Assembly: GCA_030390025.1 (NCBI GenBank)
Contig: CM059432.1
Coordinates: 49,478,001 to 49,542,000, forward strand
Length of the DNA stretch: 64,000 nt
Reading direction: 5' to 3'
Source of the DNA: Squalus acanthias
Lineage: Eukaryota
Below, piece by piece: positions 48,673-64,000 of this stretch (positions are counted from its first letter, which is position 1; the number at the start of each line of letters is the position of its first letter). The notes below the pieces were generated by a model that saw nothing but the letters and a program-made list of their open reading frames with translations, made no database searches and was not told where the DNA came from. The translations under genes and the position numbers were made by a program.

Positions 48673-49417
48673 AGCTCGTAGAGGCAAGAGGAAGACGCAG
48701 AAGAGGAAGAAACAGAAGAGGAAGAAGCCGAAGAGGAGGAAGCAGAAGAAGAGGAAACAGAAGGAAGGATGCAACCTAGACAGCCCCTTTCTGGCCGGGA
48801 TATCTGGGATGGAATCATCCTCCTGCGGTACCAGTGACCACAACCTCAATTCCCCTTTTAACATTAGTCCCACACCTTACCTTCCTTCTGTTACTGACCA
48901 TCACAGCGTCCTCTTGGCCACGATGCTGAAATAAAAGCCACCACAAAGCAAACTTTCCAATCCAACTTTATACATCTATCCATCCAATATGACATCAAGA
49001 AATCAGCCCATCACCCTTATGCATTCTCTTAGTGACTGTCTAATTGAAACATATAAAATTCTTAAGGGGCTTGACAGGGTTAATGCTGAGAAAATGTTTC
49101 CCCTGGCTGGGGAGTCTAAAACACGGGGTCACAGTCTCAGAATAAGGGGTCGGCCATTTAGGACTGAGATGAGGAGAAATTTCTTTACTCAAAGGGTTGT
49201 GAATCTTTGGAATTCTCTACCCCAGAGAGCTGTGGATGCTCAGTCGTTGAGTATATTCAAGACAGATTTCGATAAAATTTTGCGAACTAAGGGAATTAAG
49301 GGATGTGGGGATAGAAACATAGAAACATAGAAACATAGAAAATAGGTGCAGGAGTAGACCATTCGGTCCTTCGAGACTGCACCCCCATTCAATGCGTTCA
49401 TGGCTGAACATGCTACC

Positions 49418-52258
49418 TCAGTACCCCATTCCTGCTTTCTCACCATACCCCTTGATCCCCCTAGTTGTGACTATTATATCTAACTCCCTTTTGAATATAT
49501 TTAGCGAACTGGCCTCAACAACCTTCTGTGGTAGAGAATTCCACAGATTCACCACTCTCTGGATGAAGAAGTTCCTCCTCATCTCAGTCTTAAATGGCTT
49601 CCCCTTTATCCTTAGACTGTAACCCCTGGTTTTAGTTTTCCCTAACATTGGAAACATTCTGCCCGCATCTAATTTGTCTAAACCAGTCAGGATTTTAAAT
49701 GTCTCTATAAGATCCCCCCTCATTCTTCTGAACTCCAGAGGATACAAGTTCAGTTGATCCAGTCTTTCTTGATATGTCAGTCTGGCCATCCCAGGAATCA
49801 ATCTAGTGAACCTTCGTTGCACTCCCTCAATAGCAAGAATGTCCTTCCTCAAGTTAGGAGACCAAAACTGCACACAATACTCCAGGTGTGGCCTCACCAA
49901 GGCCCTGTACAACTGTAGCATCACCTCCCTACTCCTGTACTCAAATCCCCTTGCTATGAAGGCCATCATGCCATTTGCTTTCTTGACTGCCTGCTGCACT
50001 TGCCTTCCCACCTTCAGTGACTGATGTACCATGACGCCCAGGTCTCGTTGCACCTCCCCTTTCCCTAATCTGCCACCATTCAGGTAATAGTCTGCCTCCC
50101 TATTTTTACCACCAAAGTGGATAACCTCACATTTATCCACATTGTACTTCATCTGCCATACATTTGCCCATTCACCCAACCTGTCCAAGTCACTCTGTAG
50201 CCTCCTAGCATCCTCCTCATTGTTCACACTGCCTCCCAATTTAGTGTCATCCGCAAATTTGGAGATATTACAATTAATCCCTTCGTCCAAATCATTAATA
50301 TATAATGTAAACAGCTGGGGTCCCAGCACCGAACCCTGCGGTACCCCGCTGGTCACTGCCTGCCATTCTGAAAAGTACCCATTTACTCCTACTCTTTGTT
50401 TCCTGTGTGCCAACCAGTTCTCAATCCACGTCAACACATTACCCCCAATCCCATGTGCTTTAACTTTGCACACCAATCTCTTGTGTGGGACCTTGTCGAA
50501 GGCCTTCTGAAAGTCCAAATACACCACATCTACTGGTTCCCCCCCGTCCACTCTATTGGAAACATCCTCAAAAAATTCCAGAAGATTTGTCAAGCATGAT
50601 TTCCCTATCACAAATCCATGCTGACTTGGACCTATCATGTCGCCACTTTCCAAATGGTCTGTTATGACATCTTTAATAATTGATTCCATCATTTTACCCA
50701 CCACCGATGTCAGGCTGACCGGTCTATAATTCCCTGCTTTCTCCCTCCCTCCTTTTTTAAAAACAGGGGTTACATTAGCCACCCTCCACTCCTTCGGAAC
50801 TGATCCAGAGTCTAAGGAATGTTGGAAAATGATCGTCAATGCATCCACTATTTCCAAGGCCACCTCCTTAAGTACTCTGGGATGCAGACCATCAGGCCCT
50901 GGGGATTTATCAGCCTTCAGTCCCATCAATTTCTCCAACACCTTTTCCCGACTGATAAGGATTTCCCTCAGCTCCTCCCTCTTACCAGATCCTTTGATCT
51001 CTTTTATTTCCGGAAGGTTGTTTGTGTCCTCCACAGTAAACACCGAACCAAAGTAGTTGTTCAATTGATCTGCCATTTCTTTGTTCCCCATTATGACTTC
51101 CCCTGTTTCTGACTGCAGGGGACCTACGTTTGTTTTTACTAACCTCTTTCTTTTTACATATTTATAGAAGCTTTTGCAGTCCGTTTTAATGTTCTCCGCA
51201 AGCTTCCTTTCATATTTTATTTTCCCTGCCCTAATCAAACCCTTCGTCCTCCTCTGCTGAGTTTTAAAGTTCTCCCAGTCCCCAGGTTTGCTGCTACTTC
51301 TGGCCAATTTGTATGCCACTTCCTTGCTTTTAATACTATCCCTGATTTCCCTTGTTAGCCATGGTTGAGCCACCTTCCCTTTTTTATTTTTACGCCAGAC
51401 AGGGATGTACAATTGCTGTAGTTCATCCATGCGATCTCTAAATGTCTGCCATTGCCCTTCCACTGATAACCCCTTAAATATCGCTTGCCAATCTAACCTC
51501 GCCAATTCACGCCTCATACCCTCAAAGTTGCCCTTATTTAAGTTCTGGACCATGGTCTCTGAATTAACTGTTTCCTTCTCCATCCTAATGTAGAACTCCA
51601 CCATACTATGGTCACTCTTCCCCAAGGGGCCTCGCACCACAAGATTGCTGATTAGTCCTTCCTCATTACACAACACCCAGTCCAGGATGGCCTCTCCTCT
51701 AGTTGGTTCCTCAACATATTGGTTTAGGAAACCATCCCTTAAACACTCCAGGAAATCCTCCTCCACCGTATTGCTTCCAGTTTGAGTAGCCCAATCTATA
51801 TGCATATTAAAGTCACCCATGATAACTGCTGTGCCTTTTTTGCATGCACCTCCAATTTCCTGTTTCATACCCTCCCCCACCTCACTACTACTGTTTGGAG
51901 GTCTGTACACAACCCCCACTAATGTTTTCTGCCCTTTGGTGTTCTGCAGCTCAACCCATATTGATTCCACATCCTCCAAGCTAATGTCCTTCCTAGCTAT
52001 TGCATTAATCTCCTTTTTAACCAGCAATGCTACCCCACCCCCTTTTCCTTTTATTCTATCCTTCCTGAATGTTGAATACCCCTGGATATTCAGTTCCCAG
52101 CCTTGATTGTTCTGGAGCCACGTCTCTGTAATCCCAATCACATCATATCCGTTAACATCAATTTGCACAGTCAATTCATCCACCTTATTACGGATACTCC
52201 TTGCATTAAGACACAGAGCCTTTAGGCTTGTTTTATTAACACCCTTTGTCCTTTTAGA
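49418..52258 (-). CDS. CR1 ORF2p: APE endonuclease + reverse transcriptase (open from 52258; upstream frame reaches the ORF1 overlap through one TAG)
   Basis: [54 protein letters not shown]. No internal stops. No ATG between the TAG and the APE start. Confidence 0.93.
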   Translation of the reverse strand, partial: SKRTKGVNKTSLKALCLNARSIRNKVDELTVQIDVNGYDVIGITETWLQNNQGWELNIQGYSTFRKDRIKGKGGGVALLVKKEINAIARKDISLEDVESIWVELQNTKGQKTLVGVVYRPPNSSSEVGEGMKQEIGGACKKGTAVIMGDFNMHIDWATQTGSNTVEEDFLECLRDGFLNQYVEEPTRGEAILDWVLCNEEGLISNLVVRGPLGKSDHSMVEFYIRMEKETVNSETMVQNLNKGNFEGMRRELARLDWQAIFKGLSVEGQWQTFRDRMDELQQLYIPVWRKNKKGKVAQPWLTREIRDSIKSKEVAYKLARSSSKPGDWENFKTQQRRTKGLIRAGKIKYERKLAENIKTDCKSFYKYVKRKRLVKTNVGPLQSETGEVIMGNKEMADQLNNYFGSVFTVEDTNNLPEIKEIKGSGKREELREILISREKVLEKLMGLKADKSPGPDGLHPRVLKEVALEIVDALTIIFQHSLDSGSVPKEWRVANVTPVFKKGGREKAGNYRPVSLTSVVGKMMESIIKDVITDHLESGDMIGPSQHGFVIGKSCLTNLLEFFEDVSNRVDGGEPVDVVYLDFQKAFDKVPHKRLVCKVKAHGIGGNVLTWIENWLAHRKQRVGVNGYFSEWQAVTSGVPQGSVLGPQLFTLYINDLDEGINCNISKFADDTKLGGSVNNEEDARRLQSDLDRLGEWANVWQMKYNVDKCEVIHFGGKNREADYYLNGGRLGKGEVQRDLGVMVHQSLKVGRQVQQAVKKANGMMAFIARGFEYRSREVMLQLYRALVRPHLEYCVQFWSPNLRKDILAIEGVQRRFTRLIPGMARLTYQERLDQLNLYPLEFRRMRGDLIETFKILTGLDKLDAGRMFPMLGKTKTRGYSLRIKGKPFKTEMRRNFFIQRVVNLWNSLPQKVVEASSLNIFKRELDIIVTTRGIKGYGEKAGMGY

Positions 52259-52401
52259 CTATTGATTTAGTATGGCCCTTTGTGTTTCTTGCCTTTGTTT
52301 ACTTGGATTTCCCTTATTGTTTCTCACCCTTCTAACATTTGTTTCTGACTGCATATTACTTCCCCCTGTTTCGCTACATAGGTTCCCATTCCCCTGCCAT
52401 A

Positions 52402-53346
52402 TTAGTTTAAATCCTCCCGAACTGCCTTAGCAAATATTACCCCGAGGACATCGGTTCCAGTCCTGCCCAAGTGCAGACCGTCCCTTTTGTACAGGTCCCA
52501 CTTCCCCCAGAACTGGTTCCAATGCCTCAGGTATTTGAATCCCTCCCTCCTGCACCACTGCTCAAGCCACGTATTTAATCTTGCTATCCTGTTCATGCTA
52601 CTCTGATTAGCACGTGGCACTGGTAGCAACCCAGAGATTACTACCTTTGAGGTCCTACTTTTCAATTTAGCTCCTAGCTCCCTAAATTCTGCTTGTAGGA
52701 CCTCTTCCCACTTTTTACCTATATCGTTGGTACCTACATGCACCACGACAGCTGGCTCTTCACCCTCCCTTTCCAGAATGTTCTGCAGCCGCTCCGAGAC
52801 ATCCTTGACCCTTGCACCAGGGAGGCAACATACCATCCTGGAATCTCGGTTGCGGCCACAGAAACTCCTGTCTAATCCCCTTACAATTGAGTCCCCTATC
52901 ACTATAGCTCTACCACTCTTTTTCCCGCCCTGCTGTGCAGCAGAGCCAGCCATGGTGCCATGAACCTGGCTGCTGGTGCCTTCCCCTGGTAGGTCATTTC
53001 CCCCAACAGTATCCAAAACGGTATATCTGTTTTGGAGGGAGATGACCGCAGGGGACTCCTGCACTACCTTCCTGATATTGCCCTGCCTCTTGGTCACCCA
53101 TTTACTGTCTGACCTAGCCTTTACCCGCGGTGTGTTCAACTCACTAAATGAGTAATCCACAAAGTTCTCGGCATCATGGATGCTCCAGAGTGAGTCCATC
53201 CGCAGCTCCAGTGCCGCCATGCGGTCCGTCAGGAGCTGCAGCTGGACGCACTTCCTGCACACATAGTTGCCAGGGACACTGGAAGTGTCCCTGATTTCCC
53301 ACATAGCACAGGAGGAGCACGACACGGTTCCGAGATTTCCTGCCAT
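52402..53346 (-). CDS. CR1 ORF1p: N-terminal CxxC..CxxC zinc finger / coiled coil plus SGNH esterase domain (314 aa)
   Basis: CSSC..CRKC. SGNH blocks VIGDSIVRG, LPGA, HVGTND and DGLH. ATG in context gtcATGG. Confidence 0.92.
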   Translation of the reverse strand: MAGNLGTVSCSSCAMWEIRDTSSVPGNYVCRKCVQLQLLTDRMAALELRMDSLWSIHDAENFVDYSFSELNTPRVKARSDSKWVTKRQGNIRKVVQESPAVISLQNRYTVLDTVGGNDLPGEGTSSQVHGTMAGSAAQQGGKKSGRAIVIGDSIVRGLDRSFCGRNRDSRMVCCLPGARVKDVSERLQNILEREGEEPAVVVHVGTNDIGKKWEEVLQAEFRELGAKLKSRTSKVVISGLLPVPRANQSSMNRIARLNTWLEQWCRREGFKYLRHWNQFWGKWDLYKRDGLHLGRTGTDVLGVIFAKAVREDLN

Positions 53347-61480: not shown

Positions 61481-64000
61481 AACGGTCTACACCTGTGCAA
61501 AGATGGAACTGATGTTCTCGGGGTAATTTTTGATAAAGCAGTTTGGGAGCATTTAAACTAGTATGGCAGGGGGCTAGAAACCTATGTAGTGAAATAGAGG
61601 AAAGTGAAAGGCAGACAGAAATAAATGGTAAAAGGGTGAGGAACAAAAAACAAAGGGCCAAACCAATTCATAAAAAATGTGAGCATAAAAAAAGCCTGAG
61701 GGTTTTATACCTTAATGCGAGAAGCATCAGGAACAAGGTAGATGAATTAGCTGTGGAAATAGAGGTTAATAATTATGATCTAATTGGGATTACGGAAACA
61801 TGGTTGCAGGGTGAGCAGGGCTGGGAGCTTAACATACAGGGGTATTCAGTATTTAGGAAGGATCGACAAAAAAGAAAGGGAGGAGGGGTAGCATTGCTGG
61901 TAAAAGAAGGGATAAATGCAATTGAAAGGAAGGATATTAACTCAGTTAATACAGAATCTATATGGGTGGAGCTAAGAAATAGCGAGGGGCGAAAAACATT
62001 AATAGGAGTGGTATATAGGCCTCCAAATAGTAAAATAGAGGTTGGGGAGGGCATCACGAGGGAAATTAGAGAAGCGTGCAATAAGAGCACAGCTGTCATC
62101 ATAGGTGACTTTAACTTACATATAGATTGGAATAGCCTAATCAGTAAAAATAATGAGGAGGAGGAATTCCTTGAGTGTTTAAGGGATGGTTATCTGGATC
62201 AATATGTCGAGGAACCAACTCGGGAACAGGCTATATTGGACTGGGTACTGTGCAATGAGAAGGGACTAATTAGTAATCTTGTTGTACGGGGACCCTTGGG
62301 TCAGAGCGATCATAACATGATCGATTTCTCACTCGAAATGGAGAGCGAAGAAATTGACTCAGATACTAAGGTCCTGAATTTAAACAAGGGGAATTATGAT
62401 GCCATTAGACGGGAACTGAGTAGGTCTGATTGGACAACGTTCCTGGGAGGACTGGAGGTAGATAAACAATGGCAAGCATTTAAAGATAGAATGACAAAAT
62501 TGCAAAAATTGTTTATACCAATCTGGCATAAAAGGAAATCTAAAAAGGTGACTCAACCGTGGATAACAGGGGAAATTAGAGACAGCATAAAATCCAAAGA
62601 TAGGGCGTATAAAATAGCCAAAAAAAGCGCCAGAGCGGAAGATTGGGAACAGTTTAAGATAGAGCAAAGGAGGACAAAGGGCTTAATCAAGAGGGGCAAA
62701 ATAGCTTACGAAAGCAAGCTGGCGGAAAATATAAAAACTAACTCCAAAAGCTTTTATAAGTATATCAAGAGGAAAAGACTGGTGAAAACCAAAGTTGGCC
62801 CATTGCAGTCAGATACGGGGGAATATATAACGGGAAATAAAGAAATGGCAGACCAACTAAATGCATACTTTGGGTCAGTCTTTACGAAGGAAGACACAAA
62901 AAACCTCCCTGGGATATCGGGAAAAATAGGGACATTTGCAAAGGAGGAACTGACGCAAGTCAATATCTCTAAGGATATGGTGTTAAGGAAGCTAAAGGGA
63001 TTGAAGGCGGACAAATCCCCAGGGCCTGATAACATGCATCCTAGGGTGCTGAAGGAGGTGGCCCTAGAGATAGCGGATGCACTAAGTATGATTTTTCAGA
63101 ATTCATTAGACTCGGGAACAGTGCCCATGGATTGGAGGGTAGCTAACGTTACCCCACTATTCAAAAAGGGGGGTAGGGAAAAAGCAGGTAATTACAGACC
63201 TGTAAGCCTTACATCAGTTGTGGGCAAAATGCTGGAGTCCATCATTAAGGATGAAATAGCGGAGCACTTAGCAAATGGGGACAGGATAGGACAGAGTCAA
63301 CATGGATTTACAAAGGGTAAATCGTGCTTGACTAATCTATTGGAATTTTTTGAGGGAGTAACTGGTAAAATAGATGGGGGAGAGCCAGTAGATGTGGTGT
63401 ACCTGGACTTCCAAAAGGCCTTCGATAAGGTCCCACATAAAAGATTAGCAGGGAAAATTGAAGCTCATGGGATAAAGGGGAAAGTATTGACGTGGATAGA
63501 GAACTGGCTGTCAGATAGAAAACAGAGAGTTGGAATAAACGGCTCATTTTCTGAATGGCAGGCAGTAACAAGTGGGGTACCACAGGGATCTGTCCTGGGT
63601 CCCCAGCTGTTCACAATTTACATTAATGACCTGAATCAGGGAGTCGGATGCAACATTTCCAAATTTGCAGACGACACTAAACTAGGAGGGGGGGTGGGCT
63701 CAGAGGAGGAGACCAGGAAGCTCCAGAGCGATTTGGACAGACTGGGTGATTGGGCGGATAAATGGCAGATGCACTATAATGTGGACAAGTGCGAAGTTAT
63801 CCACCTTGGGTGCAGGAACGGGAGGGCAAATTATTATTTAAATGGCAATAAATTGGGAGAGGGGGAAGTACAGAGAGACCTGGGTGTTCTTGTACACCAG
63901 TCACTGAAGGCGAGCATGCAGGTGCAACAGGCGGTCAAGAAGGCAAACGGTATGCTGGCCTTCATAGCAAAAGGGTTGGAATACAGGAACAGGGATACCT
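61481..64000 (+). mobile_element. CR1 LINE, 5'-truncated in the last part of ORF1, runs off the window
   Basis: ORF1 C-terminus NGLHLCKDGTDVLGVIFDKAVWEHLN* (61481-61561) followed by an uninterrupted ORF2. Confidence 0.95.
61537..64000 (+). CDS. CR1 ORF2p (APE-RT), stop-free to the window end; absent from the supplied ORF track
   Basis: Translated by hand with no stops: [53 protein letters not shown]. First in-frame ATG is at 62317. Confidence 0.92.

Follow-up and report, generated by a model that had tools for sequence, protein, structure and literature searches.

We propose that the junction between the two open reading frames (ORF1 and ORF2) of CR1 long interspersed nuclear elements (LINEs) in Squalus acanthias is probably a site of programmed -1 ribosomal frameshifting, a reading that we draw from the sequence of the junction and from its conservation across lineages. 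The element in question lies on the minus strand of the stretch of DNA that was analysed, referred to here as the window (64,000 nt; CM059432.1, positions 49,478,001-49,542,000; the host genome is 3.7 Gb), and a second, 5'-truncated copy lies on its plus strand; the families to which these two copies belong are called A and B. An earlier note on this DNA had read the junction as one at which -1 slippage may give a fusion of an esterase, an apurinic/apyrimidinic endonuclease (APE) and a reverse transcriptase (RT), and at sequence level this is strongly supported by the phase of the slip site, the use of the -1 frame, the conservation of the site and the lack of a conserved AUG. Statements taken below from PMC2612034, PMC2881922, PMC3708506, PMC3894237, PMC5009743 and PMC13343379 refer to the parts of those sources that were available.

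The ORF1/ORF2 junction of the window copy

ORF1 starts with an ATG at 53346-53344, and its product has a Cys-rich motif at the N-terminus, an SGNH/GDSL esterase domain (Pfam PF13472) and a C-terminus reading ...E-D-L-N. As the earlier note had described, the minus-strand translation ends GAG GAT TTA AAC TAA, with T_TTA_AAC in the X_XXY_YYZ phase of ORF1; TTA and AAC are genuine ORF1 codons, in this copy and likewise in the second. Read in the -1 frame the junction gives TTT AAA CTA ATA TGG CAG GGG, and this is the frame of the APE endonuclease (PF03372, E=5e-14) and of the RT (PF00078, E=7e-33). The frame map and the Pfam matches agree with the note in placing ORF2 in the -1 frame, closed upstream by a TAA that leaves a 22-nt overlap with ORF1, and the sequence bears out its remark that the ATG behind the ORF1 stop (52400-52398) stands in the third frame, which closes after 8 codons. 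Coordinates are collected in Table 1.

The junction of the window copy is thus as it had been described, but a stop in the ORF2 frame further downstream, at 52261-52259, had been overlooked. That stop is absent at that codon in all 29 other near-identical copies (30 loci including the window), and at places 52261/52262 all covering assembled contigs of four sequencing runs differ from the window. Compared with all other copies and contigs, the window has two adjacent bases swapped within 52259-52262, and this swap gives the private ORF2 stop.

Table 1. Features of the two CR1 copies in the window.
Feature	Position	Strand	Basis or remark
CR1 ORF1, 314 codons and stop	52402..53346	-	translation; PF13472 E=1.8e-13; homologues
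Slippery heptamer T_TTA_AAC, X_XXY_YYZ phase of ORF1	52405..52411	-	sequence; (T/G)TTAAAC in 16/16 lineages
ORF1 stop TAA, immediately 3' of heptamer	52402..52404	-	sequence; stop adjoining in 16/16 lineages
TAA closing the -1 (ORF2) frame upstream, 22-nt overlap	52427..52429	-	reading-frame map
ORF2 frame, -1 relative to ORF1: linker, APE, RT	49418..52426	-	PF03372, PF00078; stop 49420-49418
G-rich tract GGCAGGGGAATGGG, candidate 3' stimulator	52385..52398	-	GGGG 52394-52391 begins 10 nt past heptamer
Variable basic linker, -1 frame, shift site to first APE motif (..CLNARS)	52214..52401	-	sequence
Sole in-frame linker ATG, family A	52352..52354	-	20th codon from heptamer start; not conserved
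Private TAG in ORF2 frame of window copy	52259..52261	-	copy comparison
8-nt microsatellite, 4.5 copies, element 3' end	49311..49345	-	~75 nt past ORF2 stop
Family B copy, 5'-truncated: TTTAAAC and stop TAG	61552..61561	+	heptamer 61552-61558, TAG 61559-61561
GGGGG run of family B copy, 10 nt past heptamer	61569..61573	+	sequence
Family B ORF2 frame, open to window end	61537..63999	+	from 22 nt before ORF1 stop

Conservation of the slip site across lineages

TTAAAC with a directly adjoining stop codon is found in all 16 of the lineage representatives that we compared, namely the subfamilies A to I of the shark's own genome and seven lineages from metagenome contigs (m81, m82, m83, m85, m87, m91 and m95), the latter at 25-42% ORF1 identity. 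The base before TTAAAC is T in 15 of them, and the one exception, G_TTA_AAC, is listed as the shift site of equine arteritis virus (PMC5009743). The stop itself is TAA in five lineages, TAG in ten and TGA in one and, because it varies in this way, the constraint appears to be for 'a stop here', acting at the level of translation. When columns were compared over 13 lineages, the heptamer and the first two letters of the stop were shared by 12-13 of the 13, and most flanking columns by 4-10.

Within the elements Leu is encoded by TTA in 14-20% of cases and Asn by AAC in about 40%, and about 23% of third positions hold T; the codon preceding the Leu specifies D, H, A, G or S, yet it ends in T. 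At the protein level, ORF1 ends in ...LN in 55 of the 120 homologues listed (52 of the 66 with a complete C-terminus), including named proteins of sawshark, houndshark, catshark, zebra shark, sawfish, rays, skates, elephant shark, coelacanth and tortoise; the homologues of catfish and other teleosts have a different end (...LRTI). Among the 55 that end in LN, a residue for which there is no NNT codon stands at position -3 in three and at position -4 in 29, the background being 20%. As judged from these comparisons, the heptamer is conserved at synonymous positions, beyond amino-acid need, across lineages with unrelated neighbouring codons. Conservation in the family was a test that the earlier note had named as able to refute its reading, and (T/G)TTAAAC with its stop came through in 16 of 16 lineages; conservation past what the protein asks for is seen both in the rare TTA, AAC and T choices that are kept and in the counts at -3 and -4 (3 and 29 of 55).

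These lineages were drawn from several searches. A protein search for ORF1 homologues gave 131 matches, of which the 120 listed were used, and foreign homologues with 37-52% identity to the window ORF1 (P0044, P0017, P0066 and, later, P0064 from tortoise) served as queries against the own genome, where they revealed the seven further subfamilies C to I. Stretches of at most 501 nt were examined there at hand-picked places (20 of 375, six of them picked for long open frames; for the tortoise query, 20 of the 129 places listed). TTTAAAC was present in 16 of the 20 stretches of the first own-genome set, the four exceptions, of which one reads TTTGAAC, one lacks a T, one lacks 4 nt and one has lost a larger piece, being single decayed or rearranged copies; in the second set, heptamer and stop were intact in 17 of 20, with TTTGAAC in one stretch and a mutated stop in two. 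A scan of metagenome contigs by ORF1 alignment found 35 loci, eight of which carry (T/G)TTAAAC and a stop at the ORF1 end; the six loci with an APE match behind ORF1 are all among these eight, and in all six APE lies in the -1 frame. In 14 of the 35 the ORF1 end falls beyond the contig stretch, and the remaining 13, which have other endings and no APE match behind, are probably other GDSL proteins. A collection of genome contigs yielded only eight bacterial GDSL genes and a collection of viral contigs no match.

Entry into the ORF2 frame

Between the heptamer and the first APE motif lies a linker of 33-88 codons that can hardly be aligned, identity between families A and B being 33-50% at +75..+165. 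Its -1 frame is free of stops in 14 of 15 representatives, as against 1-12 stops in every other frame; only m85, a decayed copy, departs from this. In nine of 12 lineages a stop closes the -1 frame upstream, 10-22 nt ahead of the ORF1 stop. No Met is present in the linker of seven of the 14 lineages with an open linker (B, D, E, G, I, m81 and m95), and in family B there is none before the catalytic N-terminal APE motif in any of 30 loci. Because the -1 frame is closed just upstream, the linker is open and no Met is conserved, ribosomes would have to reach the -1 frame no more than a few codons from the heptamer and with no AUG.

The ATG behind the ORF1 stop was considered as a start for ORF2 and rejected, as its frame is wrong and it is not conserved: A, B and lineage I (TAGCATGG) have it in the third frame, and it is absent from C-H and from all seven metagenome representatives. 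A start codon of the downstream frame that overlaps or touches the ORF1 stop, which is the hallmark of termination-reinitiation, was not seen in the lineages examined.

The 22-nt overlap has the same length in five lineages (A, B, C, E and m81). In spite of differing ORF1 residues, its closing stop stands at this distance in all five; it might protect against shifting too early, or might be a side effect of the ORF1 codons.

The guanine tract downstream of the site

A run of at least four G begins exactly 10 nt past the heptamer in 14 of the 16 lineages, and 8 and 7 nt past it in the other two, such a run having a background of 3% per 8-nt slot. Read in the ORF2 frame the run codes for Gly, with GGG as its first codon for this residue in all 13 printed sequences (by eye); elsewhere in the elements GGG makes up 36-45% of Gly codons. 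A motif of four GG tracts is found in 10 of 16 lineages, with a background of 6%. A pseudoknot was considered as the stimulator and dropped: the linker is purine-rich with hardly any C runs, and there is no shared fold. [quoted passage not shown] G-quadruplexes stimulate frameshifting in synthetic constructs, and their natural use was 'anticipated', not known, in 2016 (PMC5009743).

In the shark lineages, words resembling GGGA were also noticed by eye both before and after the site; in m81, m85 and m87 the upstream side had none.

Homopolymer variation and fused copies

In lineages D, E and F a run of G7 to G17 lies directly before TTTAAAC, and one extra G at this place fuses ORF1 and ORF2 in frame. 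Among 23 sampled copies of lineage E the run is G8 in nine, G9 (fused) in 12 and G10 in two, on both sequence backgrounds, and over 40 places the junction spans 260 nt in 24, 261 nt in 12, 262 nt in three and 264 nt in one; this variation may be real slippage or homopolymer assembly error. Three fused genomic copies keep open frames (1,290, 1,270 and 1,192 aa), and ORF1 open frames longer than 330 aa were met with at about 19 of 123, 4 of 127 and 2 of 125 places in three own-genome query searches. No run of at least five identical bases occurs in the 30 nt before the ORF1 stop in A, B, C and m81-m95.

We considered whether a fused lineage might serve as proof of a working fusion, and set this aside since G8, G9 and G10 on both backgrounds point to recurrent change or assembly noise. 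At one lineage D locus (L070, G000:C14:54879090-54879590) four bases are lost across the end of the heptamer and the stop, and the copy is fused in frame with an open frame of 1,270 aa. A search for longer proteins gave five matches, among them the stingray gene model P0121, which reads a fused junction (...GGFKL...); as far as its sequence goes, it shows the same -1-frame words in another species and is without bearing on function. Catfish models were rejected as ORF1-ORF2 fusions, for their domains come in another order and they look like joined neighbours.

The proposed mechanism and its alternatives

If the junction is a -1 frameshift site, most ribosomes on the bicistronic RNA would terminate at the ORF1 stop and release the esterase ORF1p, and in a minority the tRNA-Leu and tRNA-Asn would move one base backwards, from UUA and AAC to new pairings with UUU and AAA. 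The slipped ribosomes would go on with CUA in the -1 frame, via the variable basic linker, into APE and RT, and the product would be a fusion of ORF1 and ORF2, in family A about 1,309 aa long (314 + 995 residues). Re-pairing of two tRNAs in an elongating ribosome is suggested because the T before TTA is conserved. That slippage does occur, and that the fusion is the working form of ORF2p, is what we infer from these features.

Several considerations weigh against this proposal. The invariable adjacency of the stop is not required by classical -1 frameshifting and also fits a termination-dependent mechanism. No conserved hairpin or pseudoknot was found in the 110 nt past the heptamer (energy z-scores from -1.6 to +1.2 in 13 lineages), a two-layer G-quadruplex appears in the minimum-energy fold of only four of 13 lineages, and the four-GG-tract motif is absent from A, B, C, H, m81 and m85. 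Seven of the 14 open-linker lineages do have a linker Met, at non-homologous positions, and independent initiation would be possible in these. The lineages are related by descent, and m85, m87 and m91 are close kin from one sample, which brings the 16 nearer to 12 independent groups; the evidence from named species consists of protein C-termini, not DNA. Moreover, no sequencing run recorded as RNA was found to contain the junction stretch, only assembled contigs being comparable, from four runs of which three are RNA by guess. The contigs of runs X7 and X4 (RNA by guess) span the junction without a joint, by which neither expression nor slippage is shown, and among 40 of the 68 variant rows of contigs against the window there is no variant in 52379-52422. 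The single 1,179-nt contig of run X7, from the same organism, that extends over the whole stretch compared lacks base 52351 in the linker, which would change the ORF2 frame of that copy.

The main rival is a termination-dependent shift, in which a post-termination ribosome that still holds its tRNAs would slide back one base onto AAA/UUU and resume at CUA with no initiator, so that a separate ORF2p would start in the linker. It would account for a stop that adjoins the heptamer in 16 of 16 lineages, which is unneeded classically, and for the lack of a conserved AUG, and it is in keeping with the translation of ORF2 in SART1 and human L1, which hinges on translation and termination of ORF1 (PMC2881922, PMC3708506). 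We nevertheless regard it as unlikely: the synonymous T before TTA, present in 15 of 16 lineages, would be needless for a single deacylated P-site tRNA, and no start codon overlaps the stop, the post-stop ATG occurring only in A, B and I and always in the third frame. Migration of a tRNA-holding post-termination ribosome has been described in vitro, but no LINE or virus described with such a route in cells came up.

We think it quite improbable that ORF2 has a start of its own, whether through leaky scanning, an internal ribosome entry site, a codon other than AUG or a subgenomic RNA with TTTAAA as a TATA-like box, and that the heptamer is kept for some other cis function. The linker Met of family A and six other lineages would suit such a start, and so would the purine-rich, unstructured character of the region, which is like that of some entry sites; but a promoter or packaging element needs no ORF1 codon phase (kept in 16 of 16), nor would it restrict changes to those that leave a stop, and the linker would not need a frame open from the heptamer onwards (stop-free in 14 of 15). 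A linker Met is missing from seven of 14 lineages, those that exist elsewhere are non-homologous, and the contigs of the two runs (RNA by guess), which span the junction without a joint, tell weakly in the same direction. Lowest in our estimation stands a shift at the level of nucleic acid, where polymerase or RT slippage on the homopolymer beside the heptamer would yield fused RNAs or copies, as the G7-G17 runs of D, E and F, the G8/G9/G10 copies of lineage E, the junction spans of 260-264 nt and the fused copies with open frames of 1,290, 1,270 and 1,192 aa might suggest; however, A, B, C and m81-m95 keep the heptamer without such runs, the run lengths may partly be assembly errors, and because length is independent of sequence background no multiplied fused lineage is shown.

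A -1 shift by the elongating ribosome is accordingly the explanation that we prefer, and a bolder form of it seems to us quite possible, although we would hesitate to assert it: that the RT of CR1 has been made only as a Gag-Pol-like fusion since before the split of cartilaginous and bony vertebrates, by a U_UUA_AAC shift that is driven by the adjoining stop and the G tract at +10 and not by a pseudoknot, with the tract being either the first natural G-quadruplex stimulator or the site of a trans-acting protein, possibly ORF1p.

Identity and age of the elements

The window element fits a CR1-clade LINE, judged by its esterase ORF1, its ORF2 with APE and RT, the 8-nt microsatellite at its end and the names of its homologues. 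Such a microsatellite 3' end, in place of poly(A), is what we take to mark CR1. An octamer repeat is mentioned in PMC2612034. Outside the element, some 550 nt past the CR1 3' end, there is a purine-rich tandem repeat (48686-48763) with 5.2 copies of a 15-nt unit.

The family B copy (61481+) has the same 22-nt overlap and the same downstream motif as the family A copy, and its post-stop ATG, in the third frame, closes after 4 codons; a 21-nt pattern of the junction matches twice in the window and not at all in 100 shuffles. The earlier note was right that this second copy shares heptamer, overlap and downstream motif, but the copy is not much diverged at the places that count, as it is 85% identical to the family A copy in ORF1 and also 85% in the junction; over the first 1.5 kb of ORF2 families A and B are 69% identical. 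Because of that 85% identity, the agreement of A and B by itself says little, a shared heptamer being expected by descent. The difference between 85% in ORF1 and 69% in ORF2 suggests differing histories of the two parts, for example by exchange of modules at or near the conserved junction.

For the family A junction there are 759 candidate copies, and all 40 of those scored have 99-100% identity; for family B there are 308, with 39 of 40 scored copies showing 100% identity along 219 nt. Both ORF1 and the sampled 537-549 codons of ORF2 are open in five of 30 family A loci and in eight of 30 family B loci. Because the copies are near-identical and some loci have both frames open, the two families look young and recently active, so far as can be told from sequence.

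Some public records of CR1 ORF1 bear misleading names. Among P0010, P0029, P0121 and P0070/P0071 are 'SGNH/GDSL hydrolase [Pseudomonas aeruginosa]' (on a contig of 4 kb), '40S ribosomal protein S24 isoform X2', 'hydroxyacid oxidase 2 isoform X1' and 'transmembrane protein 204'. Contamination, or gene models that engulf a LINE, would seem to lie behind such names.

Significance

The CR1 group is the dominant retrotransposon in most vertebrate species and makes up 22-34% of shark and ray genomes (PMC13343379). How ORF2 is translated from bicistronic LINE RNA is an acknowledged open question, for which a conserved slip site makes CR1 testable by reporter, and the frameshift reading predicts a concrete fusion protein of about 150 kDa. 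If the Gag-Pol-like reading is true, cis-preference and the low ORF2p:ORF1p ratio of a LINE would both gain a physical basis. The G tract, at its fixed 10 nt, is a candidate for the kind of stimulator that has been anticipated for G-quadruplexes. There is also a practical side, in that CR1 ORF2 often lacks an AUG, which leads gene finders to truncate or mis-join it.

Within the literature covered, the canonical slip site is new for this LINE family, and its context of a conserved stop and G tract is unusual. A full-text literature search brought up no report of CR1 frameshifting, older chicken and turtle CR1 papers and Kapitonov and Jurka 2003 lying outside its coverage, and this is consistent with the view of the earlier note that such a shift had not been shown for CR1. 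'Frameshift' is absent from the LINE-translation review PMC3894237, and 'frameshift' and 'overlap' are absent from the main text of two CR1 surveys (PMC13343379, PMC4316615) and of two papers on ORF1 (PMC4120745, PMC3905857); the part of the recoding review PMC5009743 available names HeT-A gag, TART and L1 among elements without long terminal repeats (LTRs), and CR1 is not among them. LINE reviews describe coupling for SART1 and re-initiation for L1, and call the mechanism 'not clear' (PMC3708506). In vertebrate CR1/L2 the esterase is the only type of ORF1 found, and chondrichthyan L2 is without ORF1 (PMC13343379).

Comparison with known systems

The closest likeness is to ORF1a/1b of coronaviruses (infectious bronchitis virus, IBV, and those of the SARS type), which have the same heptamer in the same phase and a polymerase part that is reached by shifted ribosomes only. 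The coronavirus shift uses an H-type pseudoknot a few nt downstream; CR1, a LINE and not a virus, has no predicted hairpin or pseudoknot there, and has instead the adjoining stop and the G run at 10 nt. U_UUA_AAC ranks with the most shift-prone heptamers on mammalian ribosomes and is named as the IBV site (PMC5009743), which agrees with the identification of this heptamer as the coronavirus slippery site in the earlier note. In its economy the CR1 junction resembles gag-pol of retroviruses and LTR elements, with an abundant accessory protein and a rare RT fusion, pol in the -1 frame (as in 28 of 51 animal LTR elements; PMC5009743) and a heptamer near the end of gag. Unlike gag-pol, CR1 has no protease, so that the fusion would act uncleaved, its ORF1p is an esterase and not a capsid protein, and its stop abuts the slip site.

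A -1 shift between the ORFs of a LINE is not new in principle, for the legend of a review, seen in part, says of the APE-type LINEs TRE5-A and TRE3-A of Dictyostelium that a -1 frameshift is required for ORF2; these belong to another clade and kingdom, their ORF1 is not an esterase, and the comparison extends to that one statement. SART1, with its UAAUG, and human L1 face the same problem of a bicistronic RNA and solve it in an ORF1-dependent way (PMC3894237, PMC2881922, PMC3708506); they re-initiate and make a separate ORF2p, whereas CR1 has no start codon at the stop and has ORF2 in the -1 frame behind a canonical slip site.

For the sequences around the heptamer, viral parallels can be drawn as well. 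In PRRSV the shift is stimulated not by a structure but by a protein complex whose binding site lies 11 nt 3' of the slip site (PMC5009743); the nsp2 site of that virus has an unstructured, sequence-specific element at 11 nt, as CR1 has its tract at 10 nt, a likeness of spacing only, since the PRRSV motif is C-rich and protein-bound and the CR1 tract is G-rich. The site of pea enation mosaic virus, G_GAU_UUU(_UGG_UAG), needs a nearby stop in the 0 frame, and any stop serves (PMC5009743). That stop lies 3 nt past a different heptamer, in a plant virus, and in CR1 it adjoins the heptamer directly, but the requirement for any stop matches the variation of TAA, TAG and TGA among the CR1 lineages.

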